Shown: positions 1,474-32,838 of the stretch, piece by piece
Layout of the letters: every line of letters starts with the position of its first letter
Position numbering within the stretch: position 1 is the first letter of the stretch
Origin: a virus
Lineage: Duplodnaviria; Heunggongvirae; Uroviricota; Caudoviricetes
Length of the DNA stretch: 40,414 nt
Virus record (IMG/VR): IMGVR_UViG_2917398303_000004
Location: 1 to 40,414 of that record
Direction: 5' to 3' (one strand)
The notes under the pieces: model-generated
The model's input: only the letters and a program-made list of their open reading frames with translations
What the model was told of the DNA's origin: nothing
The model's database searches: none
Program-made: the position numbers and the translations under genes

Positions 1474-1917
1474 CTAAAAATTACCCTCTGACAGGAATGA
1501 ATAGGTTCCAGGCCCACCAGTAATGTTACACGTCCACGCTTTAGGCTGACCAGAGGTAGGATTACTATTGACTACACGCTCACCTTTTACCCATTCACCA
1601 GTGGTGGGAACGGATGCTCTTTTAAATTCAGTTTTTTTATAGGGAACTTTGTAATATGGTGTTCCCAAAATCATCAAACTAGGATCACAAATTAGCGCGG
1701 AGCCAGTGCCAACCTTAGAAAAGGATAACTGAATATCAGTTGCATCGCCTGGTACTTTTAAACAAATGCTTTTATAAACCCACGCATTACTTCCACCAAC
1801 TGGCACTGTTGCATCTTCTGAAAAATCACCGTTAATTGCCAATCGCAATTTGGTGGGGTTACCAAGGTCATTAACCCAAGCCCCGAACCAGACAAAATTA
1901 CTCCTCAGGAACGCCAC
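1474..1917 (-). CDS. Tail fibre C-terminal segment, in frame with and directly downstream of the 2029-3645 tail-fibre ORF
   Basis: Same reading frame as upstream ORF, separated by a single TAA (2029-2031) and 37 sense codons; GTG start at 1917. Confidence 0.45.
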   Translation of the reverse strand: MAFLRSNFVWFGAWVNDLGNPTKLRLAINGDFSEDATVPVGGSNAWVYKSICLKVPGDATDIQLSFSKVGTGSALICDPSLMILGTPYYKVPYKKTEFKRASVPTTGEWVKGERVVNSNPTSGQPKAWTCNITGGPGTYSFLSEGNF

Positions 1918-2028
1918 ATCATTTGTGATACTTGACCAAACCCTATCGCCATCAGTTACCTCAAATGCGAAATTACCATTAAGAACATACGACTTTTTAT
2001 TCAGAGCACCTGTAGTTCCGCTGACAGC

Positions 2029-3645
2029 TTACCATTCAAGTAGATTTCTGTCGGCAAAATTTCTATTGAAACTCGCACCATCAATATCAATAAAATGACT
2101 TGTGGATGGGTTCTCTATATTCCCATTCGACATATTTCCAAGATAGTTAACGGTGTTTTTTGAATTCGAACCGATATGCAATGGTGAATTTACTTGTGAA
2201 TACTTATTGCTTTTATATAAAGCGAGTAAATCATTAACCTTCGAAGTATCAAGTATCTGAGTTTTCTCAATGCTCAAGTTAGAGGCAAAGTTAGTAAAAA
2301 CAAATGAATTATTTTGTATTGTAGGAATGGTAAATCCAATTGGTGTAACATGCGAGTTTTTAACAGAAACGCATTGATTTATATATGGAAGGTCTAAAAC
2401 TAAGGTTTGCGTATTTAGATTAGATAGCAGATGAATATCTGATCTAACTAATACAACCTCTGGGGCCTGATAAGTTATTCCTAACTCACAGTTGGCCTCA
2501 TAATAGTTACTATCAAGATTAAGTGACTTGCAATTTACAGCAACTATTGCAGCCTTTTTATTCCCCTCCATGTTATTATAATTAACATTTATACTTAATC
2601 CTGCAAGCGGTGACGATGGGGTAATGGTAACCGCTACTCCATTATTGGCGTAAAATTTATTTCTTTGAACGTTAACATTATTGGCAATCCCAGTTATTTT
2701 GATGCTATCGCCAAAATTAGAGAAAACGCGACACCCTGTTATATCGTTACTATAGCCACCAAGATCAATGGCATATCCAATTGTGTTTGTAACAATAATA
2801 TTATCAATTTTAGTGTGATTACTCTCAGGAAGTAAAACTCCTTCCGTTAATCCATTACCATTAATACTGAAATCACTTAGCTCCAAAAAAGCAATTTCAC
2901 CAGATTGCTGGGTTATAAACGGAGATCCAGCCTTTGCTGAAAATAATGATGATTGATATGGCCCCTGACCTTCAATTTTTACTAGTTTGTCTTTTATGGT
3001 AATCCCAGGATCAACGTTAAACCCTCCCGCTGGTATTATAAACTTTGTTGCGCCAGAAGCATCATCAATAGCTTTCTGGAATGCTGCTTTGTTCTGAGCC
3101 CCAGTATTCCCGACTTTAAATCCGTAGTCAGAAAGCGTTACCAAATCCACAGCGAATTTGTCAGATACCGACATCGAAACGCCATCATTAAACTTAGGTG
3201 TATATGTAACGATGTCAGAACCCTTAATGGGGTTGTCACTGATTAAGTCTCCCCTCAGTGTAGCATCGCCAACACTCAACCATGCACCTGGCCCTATACC
3301 GCCTGTAGACGCAGGTGTTGACCCAGGAGGAACTAACTTAGGTAACAGCCCATCCCATCTGTAATATTCGCCATCACCATCAGGGAGCTTCCAGCGTAAT
3401 GCCTGATCTGCACGAGTTAAATCTGCACCGTCCTGGAATGAATCCATCATCGTCCATCCCATGGAGGATAGTTTTTCCTGATAACGCTTTTCCATTCCAT
3501 GCCATGTCAGTCTGGTCTTACCAAATCTATCAGGACATGTCTCATTTGATTGATCGTTTGAAAGGTAATCGAAGTTCTGCGCATTATCATACAAATCTTT
3601 TGCGGCAGAAGACCCCAGCGGATTGCCGGTGTTATAAGTAGTCAT
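2029..3645 (-). CDS. Tail fibre / tailspike protein (beta-helix-like repeats)
   Basis: Start at MTTYNTGNPLG with GAGG Shine-Dalgarno 6 nt upstream; repetitive N/G/S-rich beta-strand-like sequence; last gene of tail operon. Confidence 0.65.
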   Translation of the reverse strand: MTTYNTGNPLGSSAAKDLYDNAQNFDYLSNDQSNETCPDRFGKTRLTWHGMEKRYQEKLSSMGWTMMDSFQDGADLTRADQALRWKLPDGDGEYYRWDGLLPKLVPPGSTPASTGGIGPGAWLSVGDATLRGDLISDNPIKGSDIVTYTPKFNDGVSMSVSDKFAVDLVTLSDYGFKVGNTGAQNKAAFQKAIDDASGATKFIIPAGGFNVDPGITIKDKLVKIEGQGPYQSSLFSAKAGSPFITQQSGEIAFLELSDFSINGNGLTEGVLLPESNHTKIDNIIVTNTIGYAIDLGGYSNDITGCRVFSNFGDSIKITGIANNVNVQRNKFYANNGVAVTITPSSPLAGLSINVNYNNMEGNKKAAIVAVNCKSLNLDSNYYEANCELGITYQAPEVVLVRSDIHLLSNLNTQTLVLDLPYINQCVSVKNSHVTPIGFTIPTIQNNSFVFTNFASNLSIEKTQILDTSKVNDLLALYKSNKYSQVNSPLHIGSNSKNTVNYLGNMSNGNIENPSTSHFIDIDGASFNRNFADRNLLEW

Positions 3646-3701
3646 ATGGACCTCATAAACGAAAAACCACCGAAGTGGGTTTGTTAAGATGTTGTTTGTG
3701 A

Positions 3702-6419
3702 TTAAGCTACATTGCCGGGGTAGGAGGCATTGTCGTATTGATAGAAGGAGTCGCGGTATTCTTTTGCTGTAACCTGACATGTTCCGTCAGACTGCGGTGA
3801 AATCTCTGAGATTAGTGCGCTGTAACCAACACGTGAAGATTCGCAGAATATAAGGCGTGGAGGTTCGATAGATTGATCATTCAGTATGATGCCGATGAAC
3901 TCATCCTGTTCAGACACCGATAATTCATAATCACTAACCTTAGTAACTGGAAGCAAACCAGACGCTGAGCCATCCTGATAGCGAATTAACGCGCGCGGAT
4001 TGTTGAATGTCCAGTCAAGTGGTTCTGATACAGCGATAGTTGTTACACCACCTACAGTTCTCATATGATCAATCAAAGTGCTGATTGTTTTGCTACCTGG
4101 AATGTCATCAGTAAAAACAATTCGGTCGCCTACGTTATAGCAAAGCGCGTCCATTTCCGTGGTCGTGGTATGGGTCAAACGCTGCTGCCTGTACTTCATC
4201 AGCCTTCGCATGCCTATCTGATAAGCTCTGTCCTGATCAAGCACGCCATCAAGCGTATAATCTTCAACTTTAACTGGAGTAGGATTACCCGATGTTCTGC
4301 ACTGAACCGTCTCTTCAGCCCACGTAGTGCCATTAATGTAAGTGACATCCACGCCATCATAATCATCGGCTGATGGTGCAACGAAGGCCGTTTGAAGCGC
4401 TTCTGTCATTTCCTGCGGGCTAATGATTCCCGTCCACGTTTTCACCCCCTCCCTTCCAACAGAAGCCATACCATCAGACAGCAGGAAATAGCTTTTACCT
4501 GCACTGGTGACTTTCTGAAACATTTCAAGAGCGGAAACTGAGTCTGTTGTTGCGTAATCGAAAAACTCGCTATCAGGCGTCCAGTAAGATGATTCCAGCA
4601 TATCAATCGCTTCGTTATCCATCGCAAGCCCCAGCTCATTTCCAATGTGGTATAGCGCACCTGAAATGCTCCTGGAAATACCGGAATCATAAATGCGTGT
4701 GGCGACTACGTTGACACGGCGATCGGACTGAGCGGCAAGCTTTCCACCCGTTTCGACTGAGACAGCCATAGTGGTTACACCAGAGTATGATGATGGTCTT
4801 GAAAGCAACCTCCCCCTCAATGACTGCCAGTACATGTTATCCCTGCTGTTATCCTGACCTTGTTCGTTCGTTCTCCTGCATCTAACCTCTACCAAACCGG
4901 CTGATGCCAACGTGATACGCTCAGTAAAACCTAACCCATTAATATTTTGCTGATTGTAAGATCCAGTTTTGCTGGTCCAGCCTGAACCAGAACCGTAAAC
5001 ACGGTATTGAATTTCCCACTGAACAATCCTGTTCTGCTTCCTGCCCTTCTTGTTATACCCACAAATACCGTTTGGGAAGAAGAAATTGACCTCAAACATA
5101 TCAACGACTTCATTATCTGGACATGTGAGAAACGGCCCCATCCATTTATTGTTCTGATTTAATCCGTTTGCTTCAAAATCAAGCACTGTACGCGGCGTGA
5201 AACCTGGCCATTCCGGGTCAACAGCACCCTCTACAACACGCTGTAAAGTAACGGTGCTGGCGTCGATTTCCAGAATTTTATATTCGCTGCCTGAGTGCGA
5301 TACTGATAAACGAATGTATCCTTCAGGAATACCAGTAAATGCTGTTCCGGTTGCGCTTTCATACGCCAGAGCGATTGACGCCGTAACAACGTCTTCATCA
5401 ACAGGTTCTGAATGGGGGATGTAATCAGCAATGAAAAGCTGGTAATCGATACTGTTGTACCAGAGAGTAACTGGCATACCGATGTATGGAGCAATCTCTT
5501 CCAGTGTGTCACTGGTTATTCTGCTGTATGCGCCATCATTGGTGACAACATAAGAATCTGGAACAATCAGTTCAACAATTGCACCTTCTGTCCATGAGTC
5601 AGGAAGGTCGTTTGTATCAGTATTTCCATCGTCAGTACTAAGGCCGTTAAAGGTGATATCTGCACCAGATACCGTTAATGAATCTGCTACAACATCCTGT
5701 GTATCCGGGGCTGTCTGCGCCATATCAAGACCAGAACCAGATGCCGTTCCGCCTACTTCTGTTGAGTTGAACCAGTTTTCCGTTCGCTGATCACCGATAA
5801 TGTTCTGTCCTGGCTGATATACATTATAGGTAAACCCATCACCAAGAGAGGCGATTGGCGTTGACCCAACGCGAATGTCGCCATCACCAAATGAAAAACG
5901 GCCCATACCCAGCACCACAAACATTTCAACCGTCATTACAGTCGGATCATCAGTTGAGAATCTTGTTACTGGTTGCACTGCATAATCTGGATAAATACGG
6001 CTGCGACCAAATAACTCGCGTATCGGATCACCCAATTTCGCGTTATTCGCTTTAGCAGGATTTACATCAAGTGGATTACCTGTTCCTGATGAATAACCAC
6101 CAAGATCACCAACACCAGGAGCAAAGAATAAAGCGTAAGCTACAGACGCAACTGATACGGCAACTGCAATCCAGGCGAGAGCTACAGCACCGTAAGGAAC
6201 AGGATAAATTCTGACGTCGCTATCCGGGCTGATTGCGAACTCAAACCACGCCTGAGATGGAATATTTTTCCCATCAACGTCAATTGTGATCGGCTGTTTA
6301 ATATCAGGCTTATAGCCCTCTACTTTTTTTGACAGCCATTGATGTATGGTTATAGCGCCATGTTCATGTGTTTCCAGCGGTTCGCCGGGGATGCGGGAGG
6401 GGTAAATTCGGATAGTCAC
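3702..6419 (-). CDS. Tail tip / host-specificity (central fibre, J-like) protein
   Basis: 905-aa protein immediately downstream of NlpC/P60 tail assembly gene and upstream of tail fibre; start overlaps upstream stop. Confidence 0.6.
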   Translation of the reverse strand: MTIRIYPSRIPGEPLETHEHGAITIHQWLSKKVEGYKPDIKQPITIDVDGKNIPSQAWFEFAISPDSDVRIYPVPYGAVALAWIAVAVSVASVAYALFFAPGVGDLGGYSSGTGNPLDVNPAKANNAKLGDPIRELFGRSRIYPDYAVQPVTRFSTDDPTVMTVEMFVVLGMGRFSFGDGDIRVGSTPIASLGDGFTYNVYQPGQNIIGDQRTENWFNSTEVGGTASGSGLDMAQTAPDTQDVVADSLTVSGADITFNGLSTDDGNTDTNDLPDSWTEGAIVELIVPDSYVVTNDGAYSRITSDTLEEIAPYIGMPVTLWYNSIDYQLFIADYIPHSEPVDEDVVTASIALAYESATGTAFTGIPEGYIRLSVSHSGSEYKILEIDASTVTLQRVVEGAVDPEWPGFTPRTVLDFEANGLNQNNKWMGPFLTCPDNEVVDMFEVNFFFPNGICGYNKKGRKQNRIVQWEIQYRVYGSGSGWTSKTGSYNQQNINGLGFTERITLASAGLVEVRCRRTNEQGQDNSRDNMYWQSLRGRLLSRPSSYSGVTTMAVSVETGGKLAAQSDRRVNVVATRIYDSGISRSISGALYHIGNELGLAMDNEAIDMLESSYWTPDSEFFDYATTDSVSALEMFQKVTSAGKSYFLLSDGMASVGREGVKTWTGIISPQEMTEALQTAFVAPSADDYDGVDVTYINGTTWAEETVQCRTSGNPTPVKVEDYTLDGVLDQDRAYQIGMRRLMKYRQQRLTHTTTTEMDALCYNVGDRIVFTDDIPGSKTISTLIDHMRTVGGVTTIAVSEPLDWTFNNPRALIRYQDGSASGLLPVTKVSDYELSVSEQDEFIGIILNDQSIEPPRLIFCESSRVGYSALISEISPQSDGTCQVTAKEYRDSFYQYDNASYPGNVA

Positions 6420-6796
6420 TTCCAGAACTCCACTTTAACAAAGCGCCGTTTGAAACGAGAAACAGGAAGAAATGTCACATTCATTCCCGGATTACATTCA
6501 GCAACGTGAAGTTGACCGTTTATCTCAACAACGACACCAACGTGGGTAACGGTTGACCCGGAATAACACGCAGCGCCTGCACCGACACAAGGATCGCATT
6601 TCTCAAGCGACCGCATCAGCTTTACTGCTTCTCGGTTAAGACCACCATCATCTTTAGTCACCCCGGAACAATCAGGCCAGAGAGGTAAACCGAGGTCTTT
6701 GCGTACCTCATTGACGATGCCGAAACAGTCAAGTTCAGGATAAACGCGCCCGCCCTTCTGCCAGAAGACTGAAAGGTATTTGTCAGGGTTGAACAT
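6416..6796 (-). CDS. NlpC/P60 (C40 peptidase) tail assembly protein, lambda K-like
   Basis: LDCFG...THVGVVV motifs consistent with a Cys/His NlpC/P60 active site; position after tape measure and minor tail genes. Confidence 0.65.
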   Translation of the reverse strand: MFNPDKYLSVFWQKGGRVYPELDCFGIVNEVRKDLGLPLWPDCSGVTKDDGGLNREAVKLMRSLEKCDPCVGAGAACYSGSTVTHVGVVVEINGQLHVAECNPGMNVTFLPVSRFKRRFVKVEFWK

Positions 6797-6805
6797 TGTT
6801 GCTCC

Positions 6806-7300
6806 TTAACTCATGTAACGGAGGCCAGGATAATATGGAAGGGTGTAACGATGACGGGGCCAGGCAGTATCGAGGACATTCATATAGCCTGCCGTTATCT
6901 GCGCCTGCGTAGATGTCCACGAACCACTCTTAATAGCCAGAGTATAGGGAACTGAAGCGGGTGCACTAAGGTCGGTAGATACGTAGTTACGATAGGTTAA
7001 AGATGCCTCTGATAGGTTATCCAGCGCGTTACGAATCGCAGTAGAAGTAACTCCATCAATATTGTCGATAGCAAACTGTAAATCCTGTGTACCGTCACTA
7101 TTTCTGGCAGGAAGAGCAATATCGATAGCTGCTGACTGAAATGTCACTTCATCGCCATTTTCAGTGACAGCCGTGATATCTTCGAAGCCTTTGCACAAGT
7201 AATAAACTTCAGTTCCAATGTTTATTTGCAGTGTTTCGATAATCACCTCTTCACCAGAAGAGGCGTAAAGACGATTGAGAATAGTCATGGTCTTGGCCAC
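6806..7300 (-). CDS. Minor tail protein (L-like position)
   Basis: 164-aa ORF in tail operon between tape measure and NlpC/P60 gene. Confidence 0.45.
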   Translation of the reverse strand: MAKTMTILNRLYASSGEEVIIETLQINIGTEVYYLCKGFEDITAVTENGDEVTFQSAAIDIALPARNSDGTQDLQFAIDNIDGVTSTAIRNALDNLSEASLTYRNYVSTDLSAPASVPYTLAIKSGSWTSTQAQITAGYMNVLDTAWPRHRYTLPYYPGLRYMS

Positions 7301-7758
7301 TCCCTGTTAAGCGCAATATCAATGATGCTGCTGTTGATAATGTAATCGGGGAACTCTCCCCAACCAGGAGCAAGAGCAGGCCTTTCCCATAGCTCAAGCG
7401 TGGCAGTAAATCGCCAGTAATTACCGCCCTCGATGGTTGGACCCTCGTAGATGTCTACGAACCGGCATACATACACGTCGATAATGCCAAGTGGTGAGCG
7501 AAGTGGCATGTTGAACCAGTCAGCACCATCTTTGATGGTGTCTCTGTACCACGCTTCAAAGAGTTGAGCCTCCGGATCTGTAAACAACCATGCCACTGAT
7601 GCCTGAGTTGGCGTTGAAGTGTACAGACGGCGTTGTCTTGCCCTGCCTGATGTAAGTTCTGTTCTCAGCAATGGGCTAACAGGCTTTAACCCGAACCCTT
7701 CCTGCAATGGAATAGGCAGGTAATCATTCGGATAGTTAATGCTGGTAGTTTTAGCCAT
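7285..7758 (-). CDS. Minor tail protein (M-like position)
   Basis: 157-aa ORF starting at the stop of the tape measure gene. Confidence 0.45.
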   Translation of the reverse strand: MAKTTSINYPNDYLPIPLQEGFGLKPVSPLLRTELTSGRARQRRLYTSTPTQASVAWLFTDPEAQLFEAWYRDTIKDGADWFNMPLRSPLGIIDVYVCRFVDIYEGPTIEGGNYWRFTATLELWERPALAPGWGEFPDYIINSSIIDIALNREWPRP

Positions 7759-10283
7759 TAACCCGTTCTCCTGTTAGTGTTCCAGCGCATCATCGCTTTT
7801 GAAATGTTTCCCTTGCCCCTTGCCAGGTCACTTGCTGCCTGTTGATAACCAAGTTTTGCTCCTTCTGTAGTTGCTTGTTTCATCATGGCAATCTGAGTGT
7901 CGGAAGGGTCACCGTTAACATTCATGTTTATAACGGGTGAGAAACTAGCCCCCTGCGTGGACTGCTGATTCACCCTGTCGAGTGTTTCATCAAGCTTGGC
8001 AGAGGTCTGGGAAGTAACGACGCGCTCCCCTTTCTGAAGAAGCCAAGTCCCGGTTTCTGGAACGCTGTCGATACCATCGTGCGCCATACCTGCAAAGGCA
8101 GAAGTGCCAACGGCTGCTACAAGCGGTGCAGTTACCGCCGCCGCTGTTGCCATCGCTGCAGGCGCAAGCGCTGGACCAACGATAGGAATTGCCGCTGTAG
8201 ATGCATAAGCGGCGATCTGAGCCTGTAAAGATGAAGCCTGCGCGTTTGCCAGCATTGATGCCGCTGCGCTTGCCTGAGTTGATTTACCTACCAGCAATTG
8301 CACCGCCTGATATACCAGCCATTGCGCCGCCATATCAGAAAGGGTTTTAATAATTGTTTCACCAAGTCCAGAGAAAATATTACTGAAGAAATCACCTAAA
8401 TCCTCTGCCCCGTGCACAAGATCATTCAGGTTGTCAGAGATGGATTCCGTTGCGCCATTGAGAATGGAGGTCATCGCATCGGCGGCGGTCTGGTAGTAAT
8501 CAGCAGAGTTATCAGCGTAATCATTCAACGCATCCATAATGCCGCTTTGCCAGTCACCCATCTGTGCGTCGGACTTTTTGTAATAGTCCTGCTGAATATC
8601 GAGACGCTCATCAAGTGCCTGCTGTAACGCTGCCGTCTCCTGGTCATAAAGCGATTTACTGATATCGCCGCTTTGGTATTGCTTCTGGAGGTCTGCCTGT
8701 CTGTCGAGAAAACTACGCTGAATATCCAGCAATTCCTTCATGCGCTGGCGAGTCTTATCGCCCATGCCTGCGCCAATAAAATCAGAATCATTAGCTGCCT
8801 GGTCATTCTGATTTTGTTTGCGTAAATTAGCGGTGAATTCGACAAGTTTCAGGTTTTCTTCGTTGGCTTTTTTCAGAGAGTTGAGACGGTCTATTTCCGT
8901 AGCAAGCTGCTCAAGGCGCTCTTTCTGTGCTGCATTAATCCCTGTTAATTTTCCGGAAGTGAAATCAAAACGAAGCTTCTCAAGCTCGGTGACCTGCTGA
9001 TTCTTTTTGCCAGTTGTGTCAATTAACGCAATCTGGCGCTGATAGCTCATTTCCAGAGACTTAAACGCTGACTCCAGCTTCTTGGCCCCGGCGTCTGGTG
9101 ATACTTTTCCGTTTGTCTCTCCTGAACCTAAGGAATAGTTTTTGCTGGATGATGATGGCCCACCGATGGTGGCCGGACTGAGAGGAAGATTATTACCGGC
9201 TTTCATAATGGAAAGTTGGCGTTCGAGCTGTGCTATTTCAACTTTCTTCCCGTCAACGTCCATACCAACTCTGTTAAAACTGGCAAGGAAGCCCTGGTCT
9301 TCTACATCCGCTTTGAGGTTGTTGAGTCGACGCTCTATATCAGTTACAGATGCATTGTCACCAACAGCCTTACCGCCTTTGTACAGGTCAATCAACTTAC
9401 CTGCTTCAGCGCCAACTTTCACAAGCCAGGTAGCGAGGTCAACTACGCCGCCAACCAGGTCTGTTAGTCCCTGAATCACCTGAGGGTCTTTGAAAACATC
9501 GCCCATGTCAGTGATCGCATTCTGTATTCCTGACAGGTCAACATTGGCAAGACCGGTAGCAATCTCAATTTTTACGCCGTTTACCTGTGCCTCCATGTCC
9601 TCAAACAGGGAGTTTACTTTCACCAGTTTTTCGATGTCTGCATCATCAGGAGCGACACCAAACTGCTTTGCCGCGTCCATGTACTGACGAAGCTTTTCAC
9701 CACCCTGATCAAGTAAGGGCAGGAGCTTTGACAGGTCATTACCAAGGCTTTCGAGAATGGTTGTTTTTTCGGCGTTTGTTTTTATCTTGCCAAGAGCATC
9801 ACTGATAGCGAGAAGTTGTTTATCAGGTGACTCACCGGCTAATTTTTTAGCGGATAATCCCAGCGCATCAAGCGCACCGACAGCTTCACCAGATTTATTT
9901 AAGACCGCATCACCAATCTTATCGCCAATATCCTTAAAGATATCAGCCATCTGGTCACCAGATACCCCAGCCTTTTCGGCTGCATACTGCCAGGCCAGCA
10001 GAGACTGAGTAGACATATTGAGCGACTTAGCCCAACGGTCTGTTTCAGTGATCTGTTTGGAAGTGGTTTTCAGCAGGTTATAACCAGCAACGCCTACACC
10101 AATTGCTGCAGCGCTTGCTGCTGCCGCAAAAGCGGTGAACGCGGTAGCCGCAGCCTTGGCGTCGGATTGTACCTGTTTTCGCCATTTTTGAGATGCTCGT
10201 TCAGCCTGGCTTAGACCAGATACAAATCCACCAACCTTAGCTACCAGGTCAATGGTCAGCGTTCCTAGGGATTTACCAGCCAT
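7758..10283 (-). CDS. Tail tape measure protein
   Basis: 841 aa, Ala/Gln-rich coiled-coil composition, located after G/GT chaperone. Confidence 0.85.
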   Translation of the reverse strand: MAGKSLGTLTIDLVAKVGGFVSGLSQAERASQKWRKQVQSDAKAAATAFTAFAAAASAAAIGVGVAGYNLLKTTSKQITETDRWAKSLNMSTQSLLAWQYAAEKAGVSGDQMADIFKDIGDKIGDAVLNKSGEAVGALDALGLSAKKLAGESPDKQLLAISDALGKIKTNAEKTTILESLGNDLSKLLPLLDQGGEKLRQYMDAAKQFGVAPDDADIEKLVKVNSLFEDMEAQVNGVKIEIATGLANVDLSGIQNAITDMGDVFKDPQVIQGLTDLVGGVVDLATWLVKVGAEAGKLIDLYKGGKAVGDNASVTDIERRLNNLKADVEDQGFLASFNRVGMDVDGKKVEIAQLERQLSIMKAGNNLPLSPATIGGPSSSSKNYSLGSGETNGKVSPDAGAKKLESAFKSLEMSYQRQIALIDTTGKKNQQVTELEKLRFDFTSGKLTGINAAQKERLEQLATEIDRLNSLKKANEENLKLVEFTANLRKQNQNDQAANDSDFIGAGMGDKTRQRMKELLDIQRSFLDRQADLQKQYQSGDISKSLYDQETAALQQALDERLDIQQDYYKKSDAQMGDWQSGIMDALNDYADNSADYYQTAADAMTSILNGATESISDNLNDLVHGAEDLGDFFSNIFSGLGETIIKTLSDMAAQWLVYQAVQLLVGKSTQASAAASMLANAQASSLQAQIAAYASTAAIPIVGPALAPAAMATAAAVTAPLVAAVGTSAFAGMAHDGIDSVPETGTWLLQKGERVVTSQTSAKLDETLDRVNQQSTQGASFSPVINMNVNGDPSDTQIAMMKQATTEGAKLGYQQAASDLARGKGNISKAMMRWNTNRRTG

Positions 10284-25948: not shown

Positions 25949-26626
25949 TTATTGTCTCAATTTAACTCGCTTCCATTCTGTTTTTAAGCATCTTTGACTC
26001 GATTTAATATATAGTTCTTTTAGTCTTCGGTATGCTTTTTCCACCTCTGAACCATCTACATAAAACATACGGATATCTTCGTTCTCGAACATAAAGATCA
26101 TGTTTTTCTGACACGTCAGTATAGCTTTTGATGTCCATTCATGGGGATTTAGCATTAGCTGTATATTGGTAGCCAACTCAAGTATACGATGCTCAGAATC
26201 AATCACCACATCAAAGTATTCGTCTGCTCTCTCATTCGTGCCATTGCCCCATTTAGCACCTTCTCTTTCAGCAGAGTGCATTCGACGAAAACGCTTATGC
26301 TTTTCACAGCTCATAATGAACTCTGAGCAGTAACTTCGAAGGGTATTAATCCATTGTTGTCTATTTGTAGACAACACCTGAGAATCAAAAGCCATTTCAG
26401 CTAAATGACGTTGATTATCTCTGTCTGTTGCGGCTAAATCATCATTCTTTTTGATTGTGTACCATGCCACAGCAGTTGGCAGTGCTGCACCTACAAAAGC
26501 AGCAAGTACAGATCCAAAAATGGTATCCCAACCAATTCCGGTATCAACAATAATCTCAGGTATTTTTGTAACTGCTAATCCAGCATCTACAGTGAAAAGT
26601 GGATAAGGTATCCCTTGCCAAGCCAT
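25949..26626 (-). CDS. Hypothetical membrane-anchored protein (AT-rich moron between Q/tR' and lysis genes)
   Basis: 225 aa, single N-terminal TM helix, low GC relative to flanks; no recognisable domain. Confidence 0.55.
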   Translation of the reverse strand: MAWQGIPYPLFTVDAGLAVTKIPEIIVDTGIGWDTIFGSVLAAFVGAALPTAVAWYTIKKNDDLAATDRDNQRHLAEMAFDSQVLSTNRQQWINTLRSYCSEFIMSCEKHKRFRRMHSAEREGAKWGNGTNERADEYFDVVIDSEHRILELATNIQLMLNPHEWTSKAILTCQKNMIFMFENEDIRMFYVDGSEVEKAYRRLKELYIKSSQRCLKTEWKRVKLRQ

Positions 26627-26661
26627 ATAACCCCCCTAAACATTTTGTGGGGGGATAATAG

Positions 26662-26684
26662 CAAAAAACCCGCACGTTGGCGGG
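26662..26684 (-). terminator. tR'-like rho-independent terminator downstream of Q (CCCGCCAACGTGCGGG + T6 on minus strand)
   Basis: 5-bp GC stem, 6-nt loop, T-run; about 50 nt downstream of candidate pR'. Confidence 0.6.
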
Positions 26685-26733
26685 TTCTTAATGTTTGTTG
26701 CTCTGTTCGCTTTTGCGTCCCGAGCGTAACATA

Positions 26734-26762
26734 ATTTAAGCACCTTCTGGCTCACATTGCAA
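26734..26762 (-). promoter_or_regulatory. Candidate late promoter pR' (TTGCAA-17-TTAAAT) overlapping Q stop codon
   Basis: Sigma70-like -35/-10 with 17-bp spacer on minus strand, directly upstream of the tR'-like terminator. Confidence 0.4.
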
Positions 26763-27356
26763 CTTAAATCTGCTGCTATTTGTGCCGAATGCATCACACA
26801 TTGGTGCATAAAGCATGAATTCTGCCAAACTTAGCCAAGAATCAATTCTGCGGCGGCAGGTCATGTAGCACCACTCTGGATGACGCTTTTGAAGTTGCTC
26901 TGCCATGAAGCGTTTGCTCTTGCGATAGCGGTATCGGTCCAGTAGCACATCAAACAATCCGTTATGACCATTTGAGATCAGCACAGCCGCGATAACGCCA
27001 TCAATGCATACACCCTCATCATCTGAGCAGAACGCAATGCCTGTCTTGTTTTTGCCATCGAGAATTTCACGGAAGAACGCTTCGAGTTCTGGTTTCGACA
27101 GCCCTGATTTCTTCATGCGACGTAAAGCGTCATTGATGGCTGTCTTGGTGATTTTCCCGGAGGCCAACAACTGGTTAAACATATTGCCGCCTGAGCCGCC
27201 ACCTATGAATGACCAGCGGCCCCACATACGTAGTTTGCCCTGAATCCATACACTTTCCAGTGTACGCAGTCGTGCCATTTCCCCGGATTTGCCAACTTCG
27301 GAAGGATTAATCATTTTGCGTCTCCACTTACGCCAGTACACCGGTTGCCAGCGCAT
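26736..27356 (-). CDS. Late-gene antiterminator Q-like protein
   Basis: Position immediately upstream of pR'/tR' and lysis genes; size and Cys/His content compatible with Q family; no motif confirmed. Confidence 0.5.
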   Translation of the reverse strand: MRWQPVYWRKWRRKMINPSEVGKSGEMARLRTLESVWIQGKLRMWGRWSFIGGGSGGNMFNQLLASGKITKTAINDALRRMKKSGLSKPELEAFFREILDGKNKTGIAFCSDDEGVCIDGVIAAVLISNGHNGLFDVLLDRYRYRKSKRFMAEQLQKRHPEWCYMTCRRRIDSWLSLAEFMLYAPMCDAFGTNSSRFKLQCEPEGA

Positions 27357-28317
27357 GATCGATAAAACGAAATATCAGCTCAAGTTGTGAGCCGTATTTC
27401 TTCTCAAATGCCACGGTGTCATCATGAAGCTCCCGGTGATGCAGCCTGCACAACGGCAACACAAAGAGATCATGCGCTTTTGTACCCATTCCACCCTGAC
27501 CGTGGCCTATCAGGTGATGGGGGTCATCTGCCTGCTTGTTACAGCAGGCGCACGGCTGTGATTTAACCCAGCGCGTGTATTTCTCATTCTCCCAGCGACG
27601 GCGCTTAGGCCTGAGCATGAACGATTCCGGCGATTCATCATCAACCTTTATCGTCAGTACCTTTTTCGCCCTTTCCTGCAATACTTCTGTCGCTGCCGGA
27701 CGCGGAACAATGTCACTCTCCCGCATCACTGACTGATGCTCTTCTGGCTTCATTCCCATGGCTTTAGTAGCTATTCCTTCAGGGATGACATCAGCCAGGC
27801 CTCTTCGCACCATCCACCAGCAAAACTCAGGCAGGGTAAGCTGGTGGTCATCACTGAAGCCCAGCTCACGAAGCACTACAGATAAAATCCAGGATACCAG
27901 GTTTTCACGCGCTATGCCTGCCAGTCTTTCCGTGGTCTGATCACGTAATTGGTTATCACATGCCCAGCACAATCTGATTGAGCTTGGATGATGGCGAAAC
28001 AGCGTGAAATGCGGGCTGTGATAGTCGTTGTGGGGCCACTGACAGACGAATGAACACTCTAGCCACCTGTCCAGTGAGACAAGTCCACCAGCCCGCGCTA
28101 TCACCTTCTTGTTCTCAAACACGGCCTTCATCATTGGGTCTTCTGCCAGTGGTTGAGATGCCGGAGGGATTGCCCCTGTTGGGTATGTGGCGTAGTTCTC
28201 CGGCTCTTCTTCAATCAGTACGCGCCCACGTTTGAACAGGTACATCAGGTCAGGGCCGGGACGGAACAATACGATCCCCAGCCCGTTAGCAACTTCCGGC
28301 GTTAACAGTGCTCTCAC
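27328..28317 (-). CDS. DUF968-like protein with C-terminal His/Cys-rich (HNH-like) region
   Basis: C-terminal CACC...HHLIGHGQGG...LCRLHHRELH motif; common partner of Q in lambdoid prophages. Confidence 0.5.
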   Translation of the reverse strand: MRALLTPEVANGLGIVLFRPGPDLMYLFKRGRVLIEEEPENYATYPTGAIPPASQPLAEDPMMKAVFENKKVIARAGGLVSLDRWLECSFVCQWPHNDYHSPHFTLFRHHPSSIRLCWACDNQLRDQTTERLAGIARENLVSWILSVVLRELGFSDDHQLTLPEFCWWMVRRGLADVIPEGIATKAMGMKPEEHQSVMRESDIVPRPAATEVLQERAKKVLTIKVDDESPESFMLRPKRRRWENEKYTRWVKSQPCACCNKQADDPHHLIGHGQGGMGTKAHDLFVLPLCRLHHRELHDDTVAFEKKYGSQLELIFRFIDHALATGVLA

Positions 28318-28916
28318 GCTGCATGCCCCTTAGCAAGATATTCAACCCACAGGCCACCAATCCACTTCACCCCCTTTGCTGTGAATCGTGACTGGCTGAA
28401 GGCATAGTTTGATGCGTTCGTTGTTCCCGTCTTAACCTCAAAACGTCCCGCTTCAGTGTGTTGATGATACGGAGTCAGGACATTGTTAAGGCGGTACATG
28501 ATGTGACTATCAAGCAGGAAAAGACGGAACTCCGGCTCTTTAGCGTGGAGAAGCTTCGCCACCTGCCGGAACGTCATCGAACCAGTAGCAGTAACATAAC
28601 GGTCAACAAACTCTGCTTTCGGCGCGGCAACAGCCAGCTCTTCACTCAGGCGCTGTTTTTGCTCTTCCAGATCAGCAGCAAGCCGCAGAGCTTCAGAGAA
28701 GGATTGCGGAATTGCAGGCTTACTCTCCTGCTCCAGCTCAAGCCAGCGATCGATAATGCGCTTCCGAAGAATCACGTTATAGCCAGATACCAGCGTGAGG
28801 CATAAATCCTTAGGAAGATGGAAACATGGATAGGCTCTTCCCCTGTCATCCCGGTAATCTCCTAAGAACTCAGGAGATTGAATATTGAGCAAACTGAGCA
28901 TATTGGGCAATCTCAA
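28314..28916 (-). CDS. Rha-family regulatory protein with KilA-C-like C-terminal domain
   Basis: N-terminal YPCF...LVSGYNVILRKRIIDRWLELE and C-terminal FRQVAKLL...SNYAFSQSRF segments. Confidence 0.5.
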   Translation of the reverse strand: MRLPNMLSLLNIQSPEFLGDYRDDRGRAYPCFHLPKDLCLTLVSGYNVILRKRIIDRWLELEQESKPAIPQSFSEALRLAADLEEQKQRLSEELAVAAPKAEFVDRYVTATGSMTFRQVAKLLHAKEPEFRLFLLDSHIMYRLNNVLTPYHQHTEAGRFEVKTGTTNASNYAFSQSRFTAKGVKWIGGLWVEYLAKGHAA

Positions 28917-28986
28917 GACTGGTCATCGCCGGGAATCCCGGAGCGTTTTTAACGTTAATTAGTTGATTCATGCTCTTCTCCACTTG

Positions 28987-29376
28987 TCAGGCGGCTGCAC
29001 CCGCCATGGTTTCAAATCGGCTGATCGTTATCTCTACCCTTCCAGGCTTTACTACAGGCCCCCACTCGATTGCCATCCGTTTAACCTGACTGTCGTCTTC
29101 CCAGACTCTGGCATTCGTCAGTGCGTCGAACAGCGCTTTGTTGTAGTTGTCCAGATCCCGCCGTCTGTTATCTGGCGGGAAAAGAACTATGTTTACCTCA
29201 ACGTTGACGTTAACTGGTTTAGGTATACCGCCGTACTGCTCAACAACAGATGCGTAAACGTTCTTCTTGAACTTCCTACCCATCTCACTGATCAGATGCT
29301 TACCCTTTAACGCTCCACGGTCAGGGGACCGGTAATAGGTGTTAACTGTTGGCGGGAATGGCAACGTTAATTTCAT
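28987..29376 (-). CDS. rusA: Holliday junction resolvase RusA
   Basis: RRRDLDNYNKALFDALTNARVWEDDSQV matches RusA catalytic region; start at MKLTLPFPP. Confidence 0.85.
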   Translation of the reverse strand: MKLTLPFPPTVNTYYRSPDRGALKGKHLISEMGRKFKKNVYASVVEQYGGIPKPVNVNVEVNIVLFPPDNRRRDLDNYNKALFDALTNARVWEDDSQVKRMAIEWGPVVKPGRVEITISRFETMAGAAA

Positions 29377-29693
29377 GGCTGGACACCTCTCGCTTCCAGC
29401 CATGACAAGGCGCGTTCTCTTGAATCGCTATCACCGTTAATGAGTGACTTGATGATCGATATCGCGTCTACCTCATCGTTTGCTGAAATAACGGTAATCC
29501 CTCTGGAAACTCCAGGCGCAACTGAGATATATCCCTTCTTCGCTATGGCCTTCACATGCTCCGCTGCAGCGTTCGGTGATGAGCAACCAATCAGCCCAGC
29601 CAGTTCACATATCGTTGGAGGGAATCCGAACCGGCGCTGATAGTTCACGATCGAACCAAGTACTTCACTTTGTCTCACGGTAAGTTTGTTCAC
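29373..29693 (-). CDS. LexA N-terminal DNA-binding-domain-like protein lacking the S24 peptidase domain
   Basis: LTVRQSEVL...FGFPPTICELAGLIGCSSPNAAAEHVKAIAKKGYI...GVSRGITVI parallels LexA residues about 1-70; protein ends at 106 aa. Confidence 0.6.
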   Translation of the reverse strand: MNKLTVRQSEVLGSIVNYQRRFGFPPTICELAGLIGCSSPNAAAEHVKAIAKKGYISVAPGVSRGITVISANDEVDAISIIKSLINGDSDSRERALSWLEARGVQP

Positions 29694-29694
29694 T

Positions 29695-29946
29695 TCAGCG
29701 CTCCTTAATCTGCTTGTTCAGAATCCCGACTTCGAGATACAAATGAGATGGCGTAAAGCCAAGTTGCTTAACCATCCCCATGGCACCGTTAAAAATTGGC
29801 CTGGCTATTTCGTCACAATTCATACCTGGGTTAGCCTTGCGTTTAGCGGCTATTTCCTCGTTGCATCTTCTGGCGATGTTACGAAGCGCGTTTCGTGCTT
29901 CAACGTCCTGCATAAGCCACCTCCAGCAACGGAGCAGGTTTACCAA
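29695..29946 (-). CDS. Hypothetical protein
   Basis: 83-aa ORF (start uncertain) between methyltransferase and LexA-like gene. Confidence 0.4.
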   Translation of the reverse strand: MVNLLRCWRWLMQDVEARNALRNIARRCNEEIAAKRKANPGMNCDEIARPIFNGAMGMVKQLGFTPSHLYLEVGILNKQIKER

Positions 29947-30568
29947 CGTAACCAGGAAACATGATTACATCAGGGTTTTCTGCCTGATTTCCCCAGTGAT
30001 GCCAGCCGGGAACAGCACAGCGGCTGAACAACTCAATACGTGACACATCGCCGTATAATTGCTCCAGACGGTAACGCGCTTCTGCTGGCTTCTGGCTGTG
30101 TTCGCCGAGTGGGCTGTAGATAACCTGTTTTACGCTCGCGTTCTGACGCTCAAGACCTTTCCCTCTGGTGGCAATTAGCAGATCCTCGGTATTGGCACGG
30201 GTATAGTTACCACCGTTCATTCGGGTCTGAGCGTTCAACAGGTCGAGGAAGTCGTAAAAGTCCTCTACTCCACCAGCCTGAAGCGCTTTGTTGATGTGCT
30301 GCTCAGCCAGTGAGTTAAACTTCACCCAGGTGAATCCCTTCATGGTCCGAACCTTAAAACCCCATGCCTCAGCCAACTCAATCGCTTCGCGGGTGTGAGT
30401 ACCGGTGAACCACATGGCCAGAACGGAATCTTCCGCAGCCAGATCCCAGACAGGCAGGCGTTTTATGTCGATGAGTTTCATCGTGCCGTAATGGTTTTCC
30501 GCTGCTCCATTGCTGATGGTGTTCCCGTATTCCCACGGTGGATCGGCGTAAATCAGTGAATAGTTCAT
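29900..30568 (-). CDS. DNA N6-adenine methyltransferase, MT-A70 family
   Basis: DPPW motif (YADPPWEY) and HSQKP...ELFSR...PGWHHWGNQ segments. Confidence 0.85.
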   Translation of the reverse strand: MNYSLIYADPPWEYGNTISNGAAENHYGTMKLIDIKRLPVWDLAAEDSVLAMWFTGTHTREAIELAEAWGFKVRTMKGFTWVKFNSLAEQHINKALQAGGVEDFYDFLDLLNAQTRMNGGNYTRANTEDLLIATRGKGLERQNASVKQVIYSPLGEHSQKPAEARYRLEQLYGDVSRIELFSRCAVPGWHHWGNQAENPDVIMFPGYVGKPAPLLEVAYAGR

Positions 30569-31011
30569 TAACGGCCTCCCGAAAATCTACCAGCCAGATA
30601 GCATCCGTCTTCGGTAATAACTGCTGGTTTAGCCAGGCCAAGACAGCGCTGACGTTCCGCCAGAATAGCCGCCCTCTCTGATTCAATTGCTGATGCGCTG
30701 AACGCCTCCATGTAAATCGTCGCGGCACGATGAAAGAGTCCTTTCGACTCCAGACCTTTCGCCGTTTCCATCAGAGCACTTACTTCAGGAGTTGGTTCAA
30801 ATACCTCGAAGTGGCAATCTGCTGGCGGTTCTGCGTAGTAACGAAATTGGCGACCGTCACGTTTACGTGTTGCCAGTTCTGAACCATACAGGCGGCAAAC
30901 GGCGAGTTGGAGCCTGTCCTGGCTGAACTGGGTCAGACCTTCGATGATGTCCCTGGTCATTGAGCCGGGGTTCATGGCAATAAACATCTGGACCGTTTTC
31001 AGAATGCTCAT
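30568..31011 (-). CDS. Hypothetical protein in the helicase-loader (P) position
   Basis: 147-aa ORF translationally coupled to the O-like gene. Confidence 0.45.
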   Translation of the reverse strand: MSILKTVQMFIAMNPGSMTRDIIEGLTQFSQDRLQLAVCRLYGSELATRKRDGRQFRYYAEPPADCHFEVFEPTPEVSALMETAKGLESKGLFHRAATIYMEAFSASAIESERAAILAERQRCLGLAKPAVITEDGCYLAGRFSGGR

Positions 31012-31013
31012 CG

Positions 31014-31934
31014 TTACCCCCTGAACCCTGGTGGAATAGCGCTGTAATCAGTGTTCTTGAAGCTGGGTTTGAAGATGCCATCTTCACGGGCCCATTCCCC
31101 ATTCACTCGTTCTGGTCGGCCAGCTTTGTCCCAGTTATTTGCAGACTTGAGATATCCCGGGAACTTGGACGGCTGGAAAAGCGTCTGTGGTCGCAGGTAA
31201 TCAGACATCTTCAGGTCATCACCCCACTTCGCGTTGCAGTAATCCACCACCAGCGACAGCTCTTCAACGGTGAACCCTTCGCCGATTCGTGCCCGGATGT
31301 TTTGCAGTGACGTGTTTGAAACCTGGTAGCGTGAGTTCGTGACCTGGTTCAGGTGAACCAAAACCTGTTTAGCCTGATCAGTAATCAACACATCACGGTC
31401 TGGTTGCCCCGCAACCGGACAAGAGTCTTTACCTGTAATCTCTGTAGTACTCTCTGTTGTAATCTCTGTAGGATCATCAGTGCATTTTGACCTGATGACA
31501 GCGGTTCGTTTTGACTTGATGGAGCGTGTCACTTTGACCTCTTCCATCGTTTCATTTTGACCTGATGGAACAGCGCATTTTGACCTCTTCGATTCAGTCA
31601 CTTTGACTTCATCTAATAGCTCGCTTTCATAGTTGATTGTGTAGAAGTTGGTCATGTCGCGTTGAGACTTGTTCAGTTGTTCAATTTTGAGCACACCGAG
31701 GGTCTTCAGGCGGGTGAAGGTTCGCTTCAGAGTCGACTCTGACCAGAACGGGAACTGCTCCAACCACTGTTCAGTCGTGTTGTAAATCCAGCGAACACCG
31801 TCACGCTCCATGCCAGACGTTGTTTCTTTCAGCCAGTAGTTAATCTGCTGCAATGCAATCGCCTCATTCAGGCCAATGCTGTACGCAAGGTCAGGATTTA
31901 TCACTATTGGTCGGGATGTCATTAACAGGCTCAT
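31014..31934 (-). CDS. Replication initiator, lambda O-like, with conserved phage C-terminal domain
   Basis: C-terminal LVHLNQVTNSRYQ...EELSLVVDYCNAKW region typical of phage replication proteins; iterons embedded in the gene. Confidence 0.7.
   Translation of the reverse strand: MSLLMTSRPIVINPDLAYSIGLNEAIALQQINYWLKETTSGMERDGVRWIYNTTEQWLEQFPFWSESTLKRTFTRLKTLGVLKIEQLNKSQRDMTNFYTINYESELLDEVKVTESKRSKCAVPSGQNETMEEVKVTRSIKSKRTAVIRSKCTDDPTEITTESTTEITGKDSCPVAGQPDRDVLITDQAKQVLVHLNQVTNSRYQVSNTSLQNIRARIGEGFTVEELSLVVDYCNAKWGDDLKMSDYLRPQTLFQPSKFPGYLKSANNWDKAGRPERVNGEWAREDGIFKPSFKNTDYSAIPPGFRG
31430..31615. repeat. Origin-like iteron array inside the O-like gene: six copies of RYTTTGACYT at about 23-bp spacing plus two GTAATCTCTGTAG repeats
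   Basis: Copies seen starting near 31484, 31508, 31531, 31554, 31577, 31600. Confidence 0.6.
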
Positions 31935-32103
31935 TCGGACCCTCTATTTCCCTGAATTTACGCTGAAACTGTTCGAGAGGACTGAAGCACTCATGCTCGT
32001 ATCCGTCGCGCAGGTATATAACCCGTTGAGTTTCTGGCTCCCACCGGATAACCCTGACTGGGATGCCGTCGCTGTCTTTGAACCGTCTGTTGAGTGCTCG
32101 CAT
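31891..32103 (-). CDS. Hypothetical protein
   Basis: 70-aa ORF between cII-like and O-like genes. Confidence 0.4.
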   Translation of the reverse strand: MRALNRRFKDSDGIPVRVIRWEPETQRVIYLRDGYEHECFSPLEQFQRKFREIEGPNEPVNDIPTNSDKS

Positions 32104-32282
32104 TCGACCTTCTCCGCCTGGCCGTTGAAATCACCTACAACCCAATCGGCAAACTGGTAGCAGACAGGCTCAAAGCATCCGGATACCATTACCCCATACA
32201 CGAACTGCGCCGGACCTTTTCCACCCGGCATAGGTCGAGCAATAAGTTGCGACCTGCGGTACTGTGTTGTTACACTGTTCAT
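31944..32282 (-). CDS. Hypothetical ORF (overlaps 31891-32103 in another frame; only the 5' part may be genuine)
   Basis: ORF track only. Confidence 0.2.
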   Translation of the reverse strand: MNSVTTQYRRSQLIARPMPGGKGPAQFVYGVMVSGCFEPVCYQFADWVVGDFNGQAEKVECEHSTDGSKTATASQSGLSGGSQKLNGLYTCATDTSMSASVLSNSFSVNSGK

Positions 32283-32496
32283 GCGTTAGTTTCTCCACTG
32301 AATACGACACGCCACGACGCCAGGAGCTGCACACTCGCTGGCGTCACTTCTTTTGACGGCGGCTGAATAAGGCCACAATCGCGCGAATTTCTTCTTCACG
32401 TGCTGCCAGATGGCGGCGGTGCTGTTCCTGAATTTCTTCGGCTTCATGCTTTTCAATCACTCCATCCTCAAGCGCCTTCTGGATAATCTGATCCAC

Positions 32497-32838
32497 CTAC
32501 CCTCTTGCAGCTGCTGTACGCATTGCACGACTGAACAAATCAACACGGTCAAGATCTTCCAGGCTTGGTACGTCCACCAGCAGTGCGCCGCGACGCTTGG
32601 CAAAGTAGTCGGCAACGAATGACGTGTTGGAAATGTCCTCCATCGCTTCCAGCTCAGTGACCTCAAAGAAACGACAACCGTTTTTCTCGTAAAGGTTGTT
32701 GTTGAATTGGGTTTCTGACATGCCCAACGCACCAGCCATAGCCTGACGGCCTCCGGGGTACGCCTTACACATCGCTTTCACCACGTCTTTCAGGGTTTGC
32801 TCTACCATCTTTTTTTTCCTTTGGTAGTTATCAATCAA
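32497..32838 (-). CDS. cII-like regulatory protein (HTH)
   Basis: 113-aa ORF immediately downstream of cro; AMAGALGMSETQF HTH-like segment. Confidence 0.45.
   Translation of the reverse strand: MIDNYQRKKKMVEQTLKDVVKAMCKAYPGGRQAMAGALGMSETQFNNNLYEKNGCRFFEVTELEAMEDISNTSFVADYFAKRRGALLVDVPSLEDLDRVDLFSRAMRTAAARG

Follow-up and report, generated by a model that had tools for sequence, protein, structure and literature searches.

We found that a prophage of Escherichia sp. E4694 carries three in-frame stop codons that are probably genuine, as judged from comparisons of its sequence with those of its relatives and with a second assembly, together with two frame breaks that may not be. The window, i.e., the whole stretch of DNA analyzed here (40,414 nt, IMGVR_UViG_2917398303_000004), had been proposed in a preliminary description to have a TAA in a tail fibre gene, a TGA in a holin-like gene, a TAG in a cII-like gene, and two frame breaks, and all five were found at the positions claimed. 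We consider it fairly likely that the element is a young defective prophage with genuine stops, in which the frame breaks are possibly due to sequencing error.

Prophage, host, and relatives

The window matched contig PDIB01000034.1 with 100% identity. This contig belongs to E4694, a cryptic Escherichia strain of clade III, the genome of which (PDIB00000000) was assembled with MIRA and SPAdes from Ion Torrent single-end reads of 35 to 400 nt at approximately 50x coverage (PMC6639607). The prophage encloses the entire window (1..40414) and lies between yecA and tRNA-Leu (leuZ). It is flanked by att direct repeats of 124 nt (96.8% identical), located 348 to 471 nt left of position 1 and 59 to 182 nt right of position 40414, which include the 3′ part of tRNA-Leu. 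The element thus shows both an integrase adjoining the tRNA attachment site and flanking direct repeats, as expected of an integrated temperate prophage. The immunity, replication, lysis, head, and tail modules were all present, being gene-for-gene colinear with three annotated E. coli prophages. The prophage is lambdoid and of siphovirus type, and its head module is HK97-like. As a second assembly for comparison, we used the Logan assembly of run SRR6148338, which appears from its sequence identity to be E4694's own read set.

Sister prophages at yecA/tRNA-Leu in E. coli (2017C-4173W12, TST3, PCP07014, and GCA_965183505.1) have the same gene order from integrase to tail spike, with nucleotide identities of 87 to 90% overall and, for GCA_965183505.1, 99.69% over 9.75 kb. 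They share the fused protease-capsid gene, the HNH-TerS-TerL arrangement, a lysis cassette of two holins and a GH19 enzyme, and the cII-like gene. However, all five of the interrupted genes are uninterrupted in the sisters, their conversion module is gtrABC where the window has the acyltransferase, and their tail spike has a different receptor-binding part. When complete E. coli genomes were searched with the region spanning the tail spike and acyltransferase genes, nothing closely related was retrieved. In the Stx-converting phages BP-4795, Stx2 phage 1717, and Stx2a_WGPS2, too, a fused "major head protein/prohead protease" gene comes after the large terminase gene, and this head module has approximately 72% nucleotide identity to the window over 2.7 kb, whereas the rest of the genome shows no relationship in its DNA and the window has no stx genes.

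Three in-frame stop codons

The genes with in-frame stops and the sites in question are as follows.

1474..3645, minus strand: tail spike gene, 723 codons (Tail_spike_N and beta-helix), interrupted by an in-frame stop
2029..2031, minus strand: TAA at codon 539/723 of the tail spike gene, Ser in homologs at least 90% identical
25201..25482, minus strand: second holin-family gene (Phage_holin_3_7, 93 codons), TGA at 25390-25392, codon 31
32344..32808, minus strand: cII-like regulator gene (Phage_CP76/YmfL family, 154 codons), TAG at 32497-32499, codon 104

Each stop corresponds to a single-base substitution, i.e., a Ser codon to TAA, AGA to TGA, and CAG to TAG, and none of them was present in any relative. 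In the tail spike gene, the ancestral codon of which was taken from a protein cluster look-up, the homologs at least 90% identical continue past codon 539 to the same C-terminus, and the 184 codons beyond the TAA stay open and conserved in the window. Codon 31 of the second holin gene was AGA in 3/3 relatives, and codon 104 of the cII-like gene was CAG or CAA in all 13 relatives. The TAA was also found in Logan contig SRR6148338_433, as was the TGA in Logan contigs. A 50-amino-acid gene call at the start of a Logan contig matched the fragment of the cII-like protein after the TAG, suggesting that this stop is in the Logan assembly as well. Between the Logan assembly and the window, there were no substitutions in approximately 30 kb, the TAA and TGA sites included.

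The number of stops can be compared with a neutral expectation. Stop-creating changes make up 4.05% of random coding substitutions, and the 11 to 14 lineage-specific substitutions per 9.75 kb correspond to approximately 1.6 to 2 expected stops in 35 kb; three were observed.

Two frame breaks

The two genes with frame breaks, the indel sites, and a homopolymer that bears on the quality of the deposited sequence are as follows.

15729..17665, minus strand: prohead protease-major capsid fusion gene, 645 codons in relatives (Peptidase_S78, residues 49-153; Phage_capsid, residues 385-634)
17351..17352, minus strand: junction of a one-base deletion in the fusion gene (TT to T on the coding strand), shifting the frame near codon 105-107/645
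17724..19383, minus strand: large terminase subunit gene, 552 codons in relatives (ATPase domain, residues 66-237; nuclease domain, residues 268-535)
17927..17928, minus strand: extra base in the terminase gene (coding strand, G to GG; plus strand, C to CC), shifting the frame near codon 485/552
22793..22798, no strand: intergenic A6 run, one base shorter (A5) in the Logan assembly and the 99.7% relative

On the coding strand, the fusion gene deletion changes GGTCTTGTG to GGTCTGTG relative to three relatives approximately 96% identical and one 99.7% identical, and the break falls within the protease domain (residues 49-153). The terminase insertion changes GGGAGTGC to GGGAGGTGC. Both are one-base changes in run length, neither of which is present in the 99.7% relative, and both sit in runs of only 1 to 2 bases. 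The two assemblies treat them differently: the protease-capsid deletion was found in the deposited and Logan assemblies alike, while Logan left the terminase site unassembled, one contig ending at 17927 and the next beginning at 17939 (11 nt apart). An exact look-up of the truncated 508-amino-acid terminase gave no match, but the NCBI record has no protein call there, so this look-up is uninformative on whether other datasets share the lesion.

Several lines of evidence point to indel errors in the deposited sequence. One-base changes in homopolymer length are the characteristic error of Ion Torrent. An indel bias of this platform is stated in PMC5556038. Compared with the intact relative L006 (99.69%), the only indels in 9.75 kb were those at 17351/2 (TT to T), 17927 (G to GG), and 22793 (A5 to A6), and all three change homopolymer length; the A6 run at 22793-22798 is likely a homopolymer miscall. 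The Logan assembly, for its part, had private one-base deletions at 4766, 18416, and 22793, of which the one at 4766 (CC to C) splits the TipJ gene. In a 19-kb alignment, the window had four private one-base indels and three E. coli relatives had 0, 0, and 1, an excess that is suggestive as an error signal, although one of the four (19940) is common to L006 and is real variation.

A similar lesion was found in the host. The conserved gene tcyL, 7 kb outside the prophage, has a T5-to-T6 frameshift, and the 5-base run was kept in 46/46 matching species representative genomes (Enterobacteriaceae and allied taxa), with the run state in the nearest species inferred from other Escherichia and the other representatives, as the E. 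ruysiae representative lies outside these 46. Among the genes of the host flank, 1/18 was broken. The frameshift rates of the prophage and the host flank are equal, that of the prophage being no higher (2 per 35 kb versus approximately 1 per 15 kb of coding DNA in the host).

Because of the Ion Torrent platform, the disagreement between assemblies, and the tcyL frameshift, the two frame breaks are therefore unusable as evidence of decay. We regard the terminase break as likely an artifact. For the protease-capsid break, the chance of an artifact is slightly below even; this deletion could be real, being reproduced in both assemblies and lying in a run of just two bases, a length at which flow-based errors are rarer. 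Approximately 40 to 70 neutral substitutions would bring a few real indels as well. Since real indels are expected under neutral decay, counts alone cannot tell error from mutation.

Intact genes and the sparing of accessory functions

The following genes had no lesion.

330..1439, plus strand: acyltransferase (Acyl_transf_3, 369 aa), intact, lysogenic-conversion gene flanked by attL and the tail spike
3702..6419, minus strand: TipJ-type tail tip protein, 905 aa, intact
7758..10283, minus strand: tape measure protein, 841 aa, intact
14174..15526, minus strand: portal protein, 450 aa, intact
20886..22343, minus strand: protein annotated as glycosyltransferase family 2 (GT2), 485 aa, intact, Pfam match below threshold
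24590..25201, minus strand: GH19 endolysin, 203 aa, intact
25469..25864, minus strand: first holin-family gene (Phage_holin_8, 131 aa), intact
33167..33886, plus strand: CI-like repressor (Peptidase_S24, 239 aa), intact
34575..34653, plus strand: tRNA-Arg, anticodon TCT, the sole complete tRNA, no suppressor
39404..40414, plus strand: tyrosine integrase, 336 aa, intact, identical in at least 24 other contigs

Consistent with the preliminary description, the tape measure, tail tip, portal, integrase, GT2, and acyltransferase genes were full length. It had also listed the capsid gene as intact, which does not hold for a separate gene: the capsid is the C-terminal domain of the frame-broken 645-codon fusion. 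An identical copy of the 485-amino-acid GT2-annotated protein was found in three other datasets.

The same description had drawn a pattern from essential genes being hit while accessory genes were spared, and had read it as a decaying or domesticated prophage, provided that the base calls were right. Recent inactivation is supported through the three stops, but the frame breaks are unsafe, and the domestication part is without statistical support. Accessory genes make up 9.2% of the coding DNA, and the probability that none of five random hits would fall in them is 0.62 (0.75 for three hits). Most essential genes are intact as well. We accordingly see little room for the proposal that lytic functions were lost while the O-antigen acyltransferase, GT2, methyltransferase, and immunity genes were kept by selection, which is improbable even though no truncation affects the acyltransferase, GT2, MT-A70 methylase, repressor, or integrase gene and the conversion modules of the relatives (gtrABC) hold the same position. 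The lesions occur in one genome only, with no orthologous defective copy found in other strains: in exact-protein look-ups, E4694 and its presumed read set were the only sources of lesion-bearing versions, and all other carriers had intact genes. Nor was there any measurable constraint, the changes specific to the window lineage (polarized against the 99.7% relative) being 5 nonsynonymous to 3 synonymous and those of the sister 6 to 6, which are too few to measure selection. A variant in which all five lesions are real and a serotype-converting prophage is at the first step of domestication is equally doubtful. Under such a variant, the point lesions would lie in packaging, capsid, adsorption, lysis, and lysogeny-decision genes, and selection would keep the O-antigen acyltransferase, the late-operon glycosyltransferases, immunity, and the integrase.

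Origin and consequences of the lesions

In the reading that we favor, a young defective prophage, the three stops would have arisen by substitution in one lysogen lineage, in a silent prophage without selection. They would truncate the tail spike (with loss of its last 184 residues), one of the two holins, and the cII-like lysogeny regulator, and would thereby abolish infectivity; it is these three truncations that make a young defective prophage the most likely state of the element. The tail spike should be essential for infectious particles, and its gene is truncated at codon 539/723 by a stop reproduced in the second assembly. Defectiveness would rest mainly on this truncation, since the phage might still grow lytically with no cII-like protein or with a single holin. 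The two frame breaks, as homopolymer-length changes in an Ion Torrent draft, may be consensus miscalls as readily as mutations.

It is unlikely, though quite conceivable, that all five lesions are real and that neutral decay proceeded by both frameshift and nonsense mutations, as first proposed. The stops look genuine, both assemblies carry the protease-capsid deletion, the indels lie in very short runs that are atypical of flow-based errors, and decay long enough for three stops should yield some indels. In addition, the protease-capsid gene has accumulated 3 nonsynonymous and 0 synonymous changes in the window lineage, which hints at relaxed constraint. Against this stand the Ion Torrent origin of the genome, the terminase site that the second assembly leaves unassembled, at least one demonstrable homopolymer miscall (22793) plus the tcyL homopolymer frameshift in the deposited sequence, and a prophage frameshift rate not above that of the host flank. 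At the other extreme, all five lesions may be sequencing or assembly artifacts in an intact and inducible prophage, which we consider very improbable. The single-end Ion Torrent reads are noisy, and the two assemblies, apparently of the same run, differ at four places in approximately 30 kb, but every disagreement is an indel and none a substitution. Ion Torrent consensus substitution errors are rare at approximately 50x coverage. Three such errors all making stops would be very unlikely, as only 4% of substitutions do so.

Decoding of the stops or shifts by readthrough, frameshifting, or suppression, which would keep the genes functional, is extremely improbable. Apparently tolerated in-frame stops are described as widely reported in bacteria in PMC7918605. 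However, when conservation of the five lesion sites among the relatives was examined, none shared any: the stops were present in 0/13, 0/3, and 0/3 relatives, and both indels were missing from the 99.7% relative. The argument that three stop types exclude one suppressor is borne out, in that no single suppressor rescues TAA, TGA, and TAG. A search of the window for a suppressor tRNA found nothing beyond tRNA-Arg(TCT), the only phage tRNA, and one degenerate tRNA-like element. No slippery motif was present at either indel. Programmed frameshifting at an SD-like GGGAGG created by the terminase insertion was also considered and rejected, there being neither a slippery site nor conservation.

Comparison with known systems and significance

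A few point lesions without a large deletion are the expected first stage of prophage decay. Lambdoid prophages of O157:H7 Sakai are reportedly of this kind, in that a small number of nonsense or frameshift mutations, and not large deletions, have inactivated a full-length element. The present element differs from the Sakai defective prophages in that two of its five lesions may not exist and that the lesions come from a single draft genome. Defective and cryptic E. coli prophages more generally are a subject of the reviews PMC6379469 and PMC7744054. As for the frame breaks, a PacBio case of homopolymer consensus errors creating false pseudogenes is outlined in PMC4687164. The present case resembles such pseudogenes in that one-base run-length changes split conserved genes, the assemblies differ, and the housekeeping gene tcyL is broken too; unlike classic homopolymer errors, which occur in runs of at least 4 bases, the prophage indels are in runs of 1 to 2 bases, and one is reproduced by both assemblies.

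Two of the five disruptions, and likewise that of the flanking housekeeping gene, match Ion Torrent consensus errors in type and frequency, and pseudogene patterns in draft genomes need checking against the sequencing platform. Inactivation of prophages by a handful of point mutations is a common and well-documented finding, and the biological weight of one more case is small. If the three stops are confirmed, this element would be a clean example of a prophage that became defective very recently and has close relatives still intact, and a possible calibration point for the rates of prophage decay.

Organization of the E4694 prophage

The window is matched at 100% identity by PDIB01000034.1 (assembly GCA_004745285.1), whose protein records name the organism as Escherichia sp. 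E4694, a member of cryptic clade III near E. ruysiae (PMC8346766). A 124-nt direct repeat with the tRNA-Leu 3' end lies just beyond each end of the window; all of the window is thus prophage DNA, with its insertion site between yecA and leuZ. A gene-for-gene comparison against three annotated E. coli prophages identifies it as a complete lambdoid prophage.

Gene layout of the E4694 prophage
Minus strand, from the right, 1: cro/cII-like regulatory region and replication region
Minus strand, 2: RusA, Q, and a two-holin plus GH19 lysis cassette
Minus strand, 3: glycosyltransferase pair, then HNH, TerS, and TerL
Minus strand, 4: prohead protease-major capsid fusion gene, then portal and connectors
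Minus strand, 5: tail tube, chaperones, tape measure, and TipJ, then tail spike
Plus strand, left end: acyltransferase
Plus strand, right end: repressor, tRNA-Arg, ParB-like and other early genes, integrase

The element belongs to the yecA-leuZ prophage family of E. coli and relatives, and its head module shows distant similarity (72%) to the head modules of BP-4795 and other Stx phages. The lysogenic-conversion module has been exchanged jointly with the receptor-binding part of the spike (window 330-3300 versus 5000-12400 in the E. coli relatives L001-L003): in E4694, an Acyl_transf_3 acetylase (GC 35-41%) is paired with a beta-helix spike of a distinct kind, whereas the relatives carry gtrA-gtrB-gtr(type) and other spikes, and only the first 134 spike residues are common to both. 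Just upstream of HNH-TerS-TerL in the late operon, two genes lie side by side (20311-22343, minus strand), encoding a 485-aa protein annotated as GT2, with a weak, below-threshold match to Pfam Glycos_transf_2, and a 197-aa protein that contains the motif "ILEDDA" and gave no match in a Pfam search. Both are kept in all relatives at 80 to 84% amino acid identity, and their position suggests a putative virion or DNA-modification role rather than a conversion function.

The antirepressor (28314-28916, minus strand) has 200 aa and an ANT domain only; it matches residues 64-238 of the relatives' 238-aa KilAC antirepressor, and its own first 25 residues are unrelated, which points to one of two origins, a mosaic junction or a deletion at the N-terminus. 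E. coli Z142-3 has a homologue that carries a frameshift annotation. In the tail chaperone pair (10285-10928, minus strand), a 125-aa TAC is followed by an overlapping Phage_tail_T frame, the usual programmed-frameshift arrangement in lambda-like tails, and this frame change is normal and not to be counted as a lesion.

In-frame stops

The preliminary description had proposed a decaying or domesticated prophage from two frame breaks and three in-frame stops. All five are present in the window, as found by tblastn, nucleotide alignments, and codon comparison with relatives, which have sense codons at the stops. At the stop position of the second holin gene (TGA), three relatives read AGA; at that of the cII-like gene (TAG; Pfam Phage_CP76), CAG or CAA is read in 13 of 13 relatives. 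The tail spike is a 538-codon open reading frame ending in TAA at a position that is Ser in cluster members at ≥90% identity (723, 833, and 470 aa); the 184 open codons that follow in frame align with the conserved C-terminal domain of 718- to 724-aa homologues, and since they are untouched, the event is recent.

A second assembly, the Logan assembly of run SRR6148338, has contigs spanning window positions 761-2700, 4173-17927, and 17939-32344. These show zero substitutions over about 30 kb, from which we infer that the run is the read set of the same strain. TAA and TGA are seen directly in these contigs, and a 50-aa gene call opening one contig is the fragment after TAG. A single base change separates each stop from its ancestral codon, and all three stops are unique to E4694. 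Because they are substitutions rather than indels, and the two assemblies have no substitution disagreement, the three stops look real.

Of every single-base change that could occur in the prophage's 35 kb of coding DNA, 4.05% would create a stop. The window lineage has 11 to 14 private substitutions per 9.75 kb, which extrapolates to 40 to 50 in the prophage, so that about two stops are predicted under no selection, and three were observed. A silent, vertically inherited prophage would gather such stops by neutral mutation.

Frame breaks and assembly error

With the relatives' proteins as tblastn queries, the 645-aa protease-capsid protein falls into two frames at 17339-17351, and the 552-aa terminase is divided at 17929-17960. 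Nucleotide alignments place a one-base deletion in the former (GGTCTTGTG to GGTCTGTG) and a one-base insertion in the latter. Both genes are whole in L006 (E. coli GCA_965183505.1), which is 99.69% identical over 9.75 kb and differs from the window by three indels only, at 17351/2, at 17927, and at 22793 (an A5/A6 run between genes). The capsid, which had been listed as a separate intact gene, is the C-terminal domain of the broken fusion gene.

Flow-based platforms miscall homopolymer length. All private indels of the deposited sequence are run-length changes.

Private run-length changes in the deposited sequence
17351/2: TT to T
17927/8: G to GG
22793: A5 to A6
12965: C-run
Host gene tcyL: T5 to T6

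The E4694 genome (PDIB00000000, SRX3260358) comes from single-end Ion Torrent reads of 35 to 400 nt, at a coverage of about 50x, and MIRA and SPAdes were the assemblers (PMC6639607). A high indel rate is stated for this platform (PMC5556038), and false pseudogenes from run-length errors are well known (PMC4687164, a PacBio case). Run length also departs from that of the E. coli relatives at two intergenic C-runs, 12960-12966 and 19933-19941. The C5 run near 12965 occurs in E4694 alone. The 99.7% relative shares the C7 run at 19933-19941, and this length difference is therefore real.

The Logan assembly has three private one-base deletions, at 4766 (splitting TipJ), 18416 (splitting TerL), and 22793. 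The Logan contig matches the 99.7% relative, not the deposited sequence, at 22793; the deposited sequence thus has at least one demonstrable miscall. One large Logan contig ends inside the CC run at 17927 and the next begins inside the AA run at 17939, leaving unassembled 11 nt around the apparent terminase insertion. The protease-capsid deletion is also in the Logan assembly.

Host DNA was used as a control for the indel error rate of the assembly. In the 20 kb beside the prophage, 17 genes are full length, and tcyL, a conserved cystine permease gene lying some 6.6 kb beyond the right end of the window, is broken by a T6 run (17631-17640 of L017, the sequence including the right host flank). 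The run is 5 bases long in each of the 46 matching species representative genomes, five Escherichia species among them, and the T6 is likely an Ion Torrent miscall. Frameshifts number about 1 per 15 kb of coding DNA in the host and 2 per 35 kb in the prophage. These rates are equal, so the prophage's two frame breaks are no more than assembly background. As caveats, both breaks fall in runs of only 1 or 2 bases, the protease-capsid deletion is reproduced by Logan, and the window lineage has 3 nonsynonymous and 0 synonymous changes in the protease-capsid gene. The terminase break is probably an artefact; for the protease-capsid break, an artefact is slightly less likely than not.

Alternative explanations

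Programmed recoding, readthrough, or suppression of the lesions is excluded in practice: the sites lack conservation in relatives, no slippery motif was found at the indels, three different stop codons are involved, and the only complete tRNA in the window is Arg(TCT). Eighty nucleotides upstream of it lies a tRNA-like element (34373-34496, plus strand; Rfam tRNA score, 45.9 bits) that ARAGORN did not call; its anticodon loop has 4 nt, and its variable region carries an insertion of 56 nt. It is 96% conserved in three related prophages (L016, L018, and L019), relative to which two more runs in the window are shorter by one base (GGG to GG, and GG to G).

Domestication, with essential genes hit and accessory genes spared, is likewise unsupported. 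The accessory genes (acyltransferase, GT2, and MT-A70) together account for 9.2% of coding DNA and would escape five random hits with a probability of 0.62, or three hits with 0.75, so the contrast drawn earlier between the two classes is not meaningful. Most essential genes are intact too (tape measure, TipJ, portal, tube, connectors, TerS, and endolysin), and exact-protein look-ups found no orthologous lesion-bearing copy in other genomes. Decay remains plausible from the three stops, but the frame breaks, at the assembly-background rate, are unreliable witnesses to it.

Predicted consequences for phage function

The tail spike would lose its conserved C-terminal domain, and this truncation is the lesion most likely to abolish infectivity. 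Of the two holin-family genes, one would be cut at codon 31, and the cII-like gene would be needed for establishing lysogeny, not for lytic growth; "defective" therefore rests chiefly on the tail spike. The capsid and terminase breaks would add to that status if real. Otherwise complete prophages with point mutations are a textbook stage of prophage decay.
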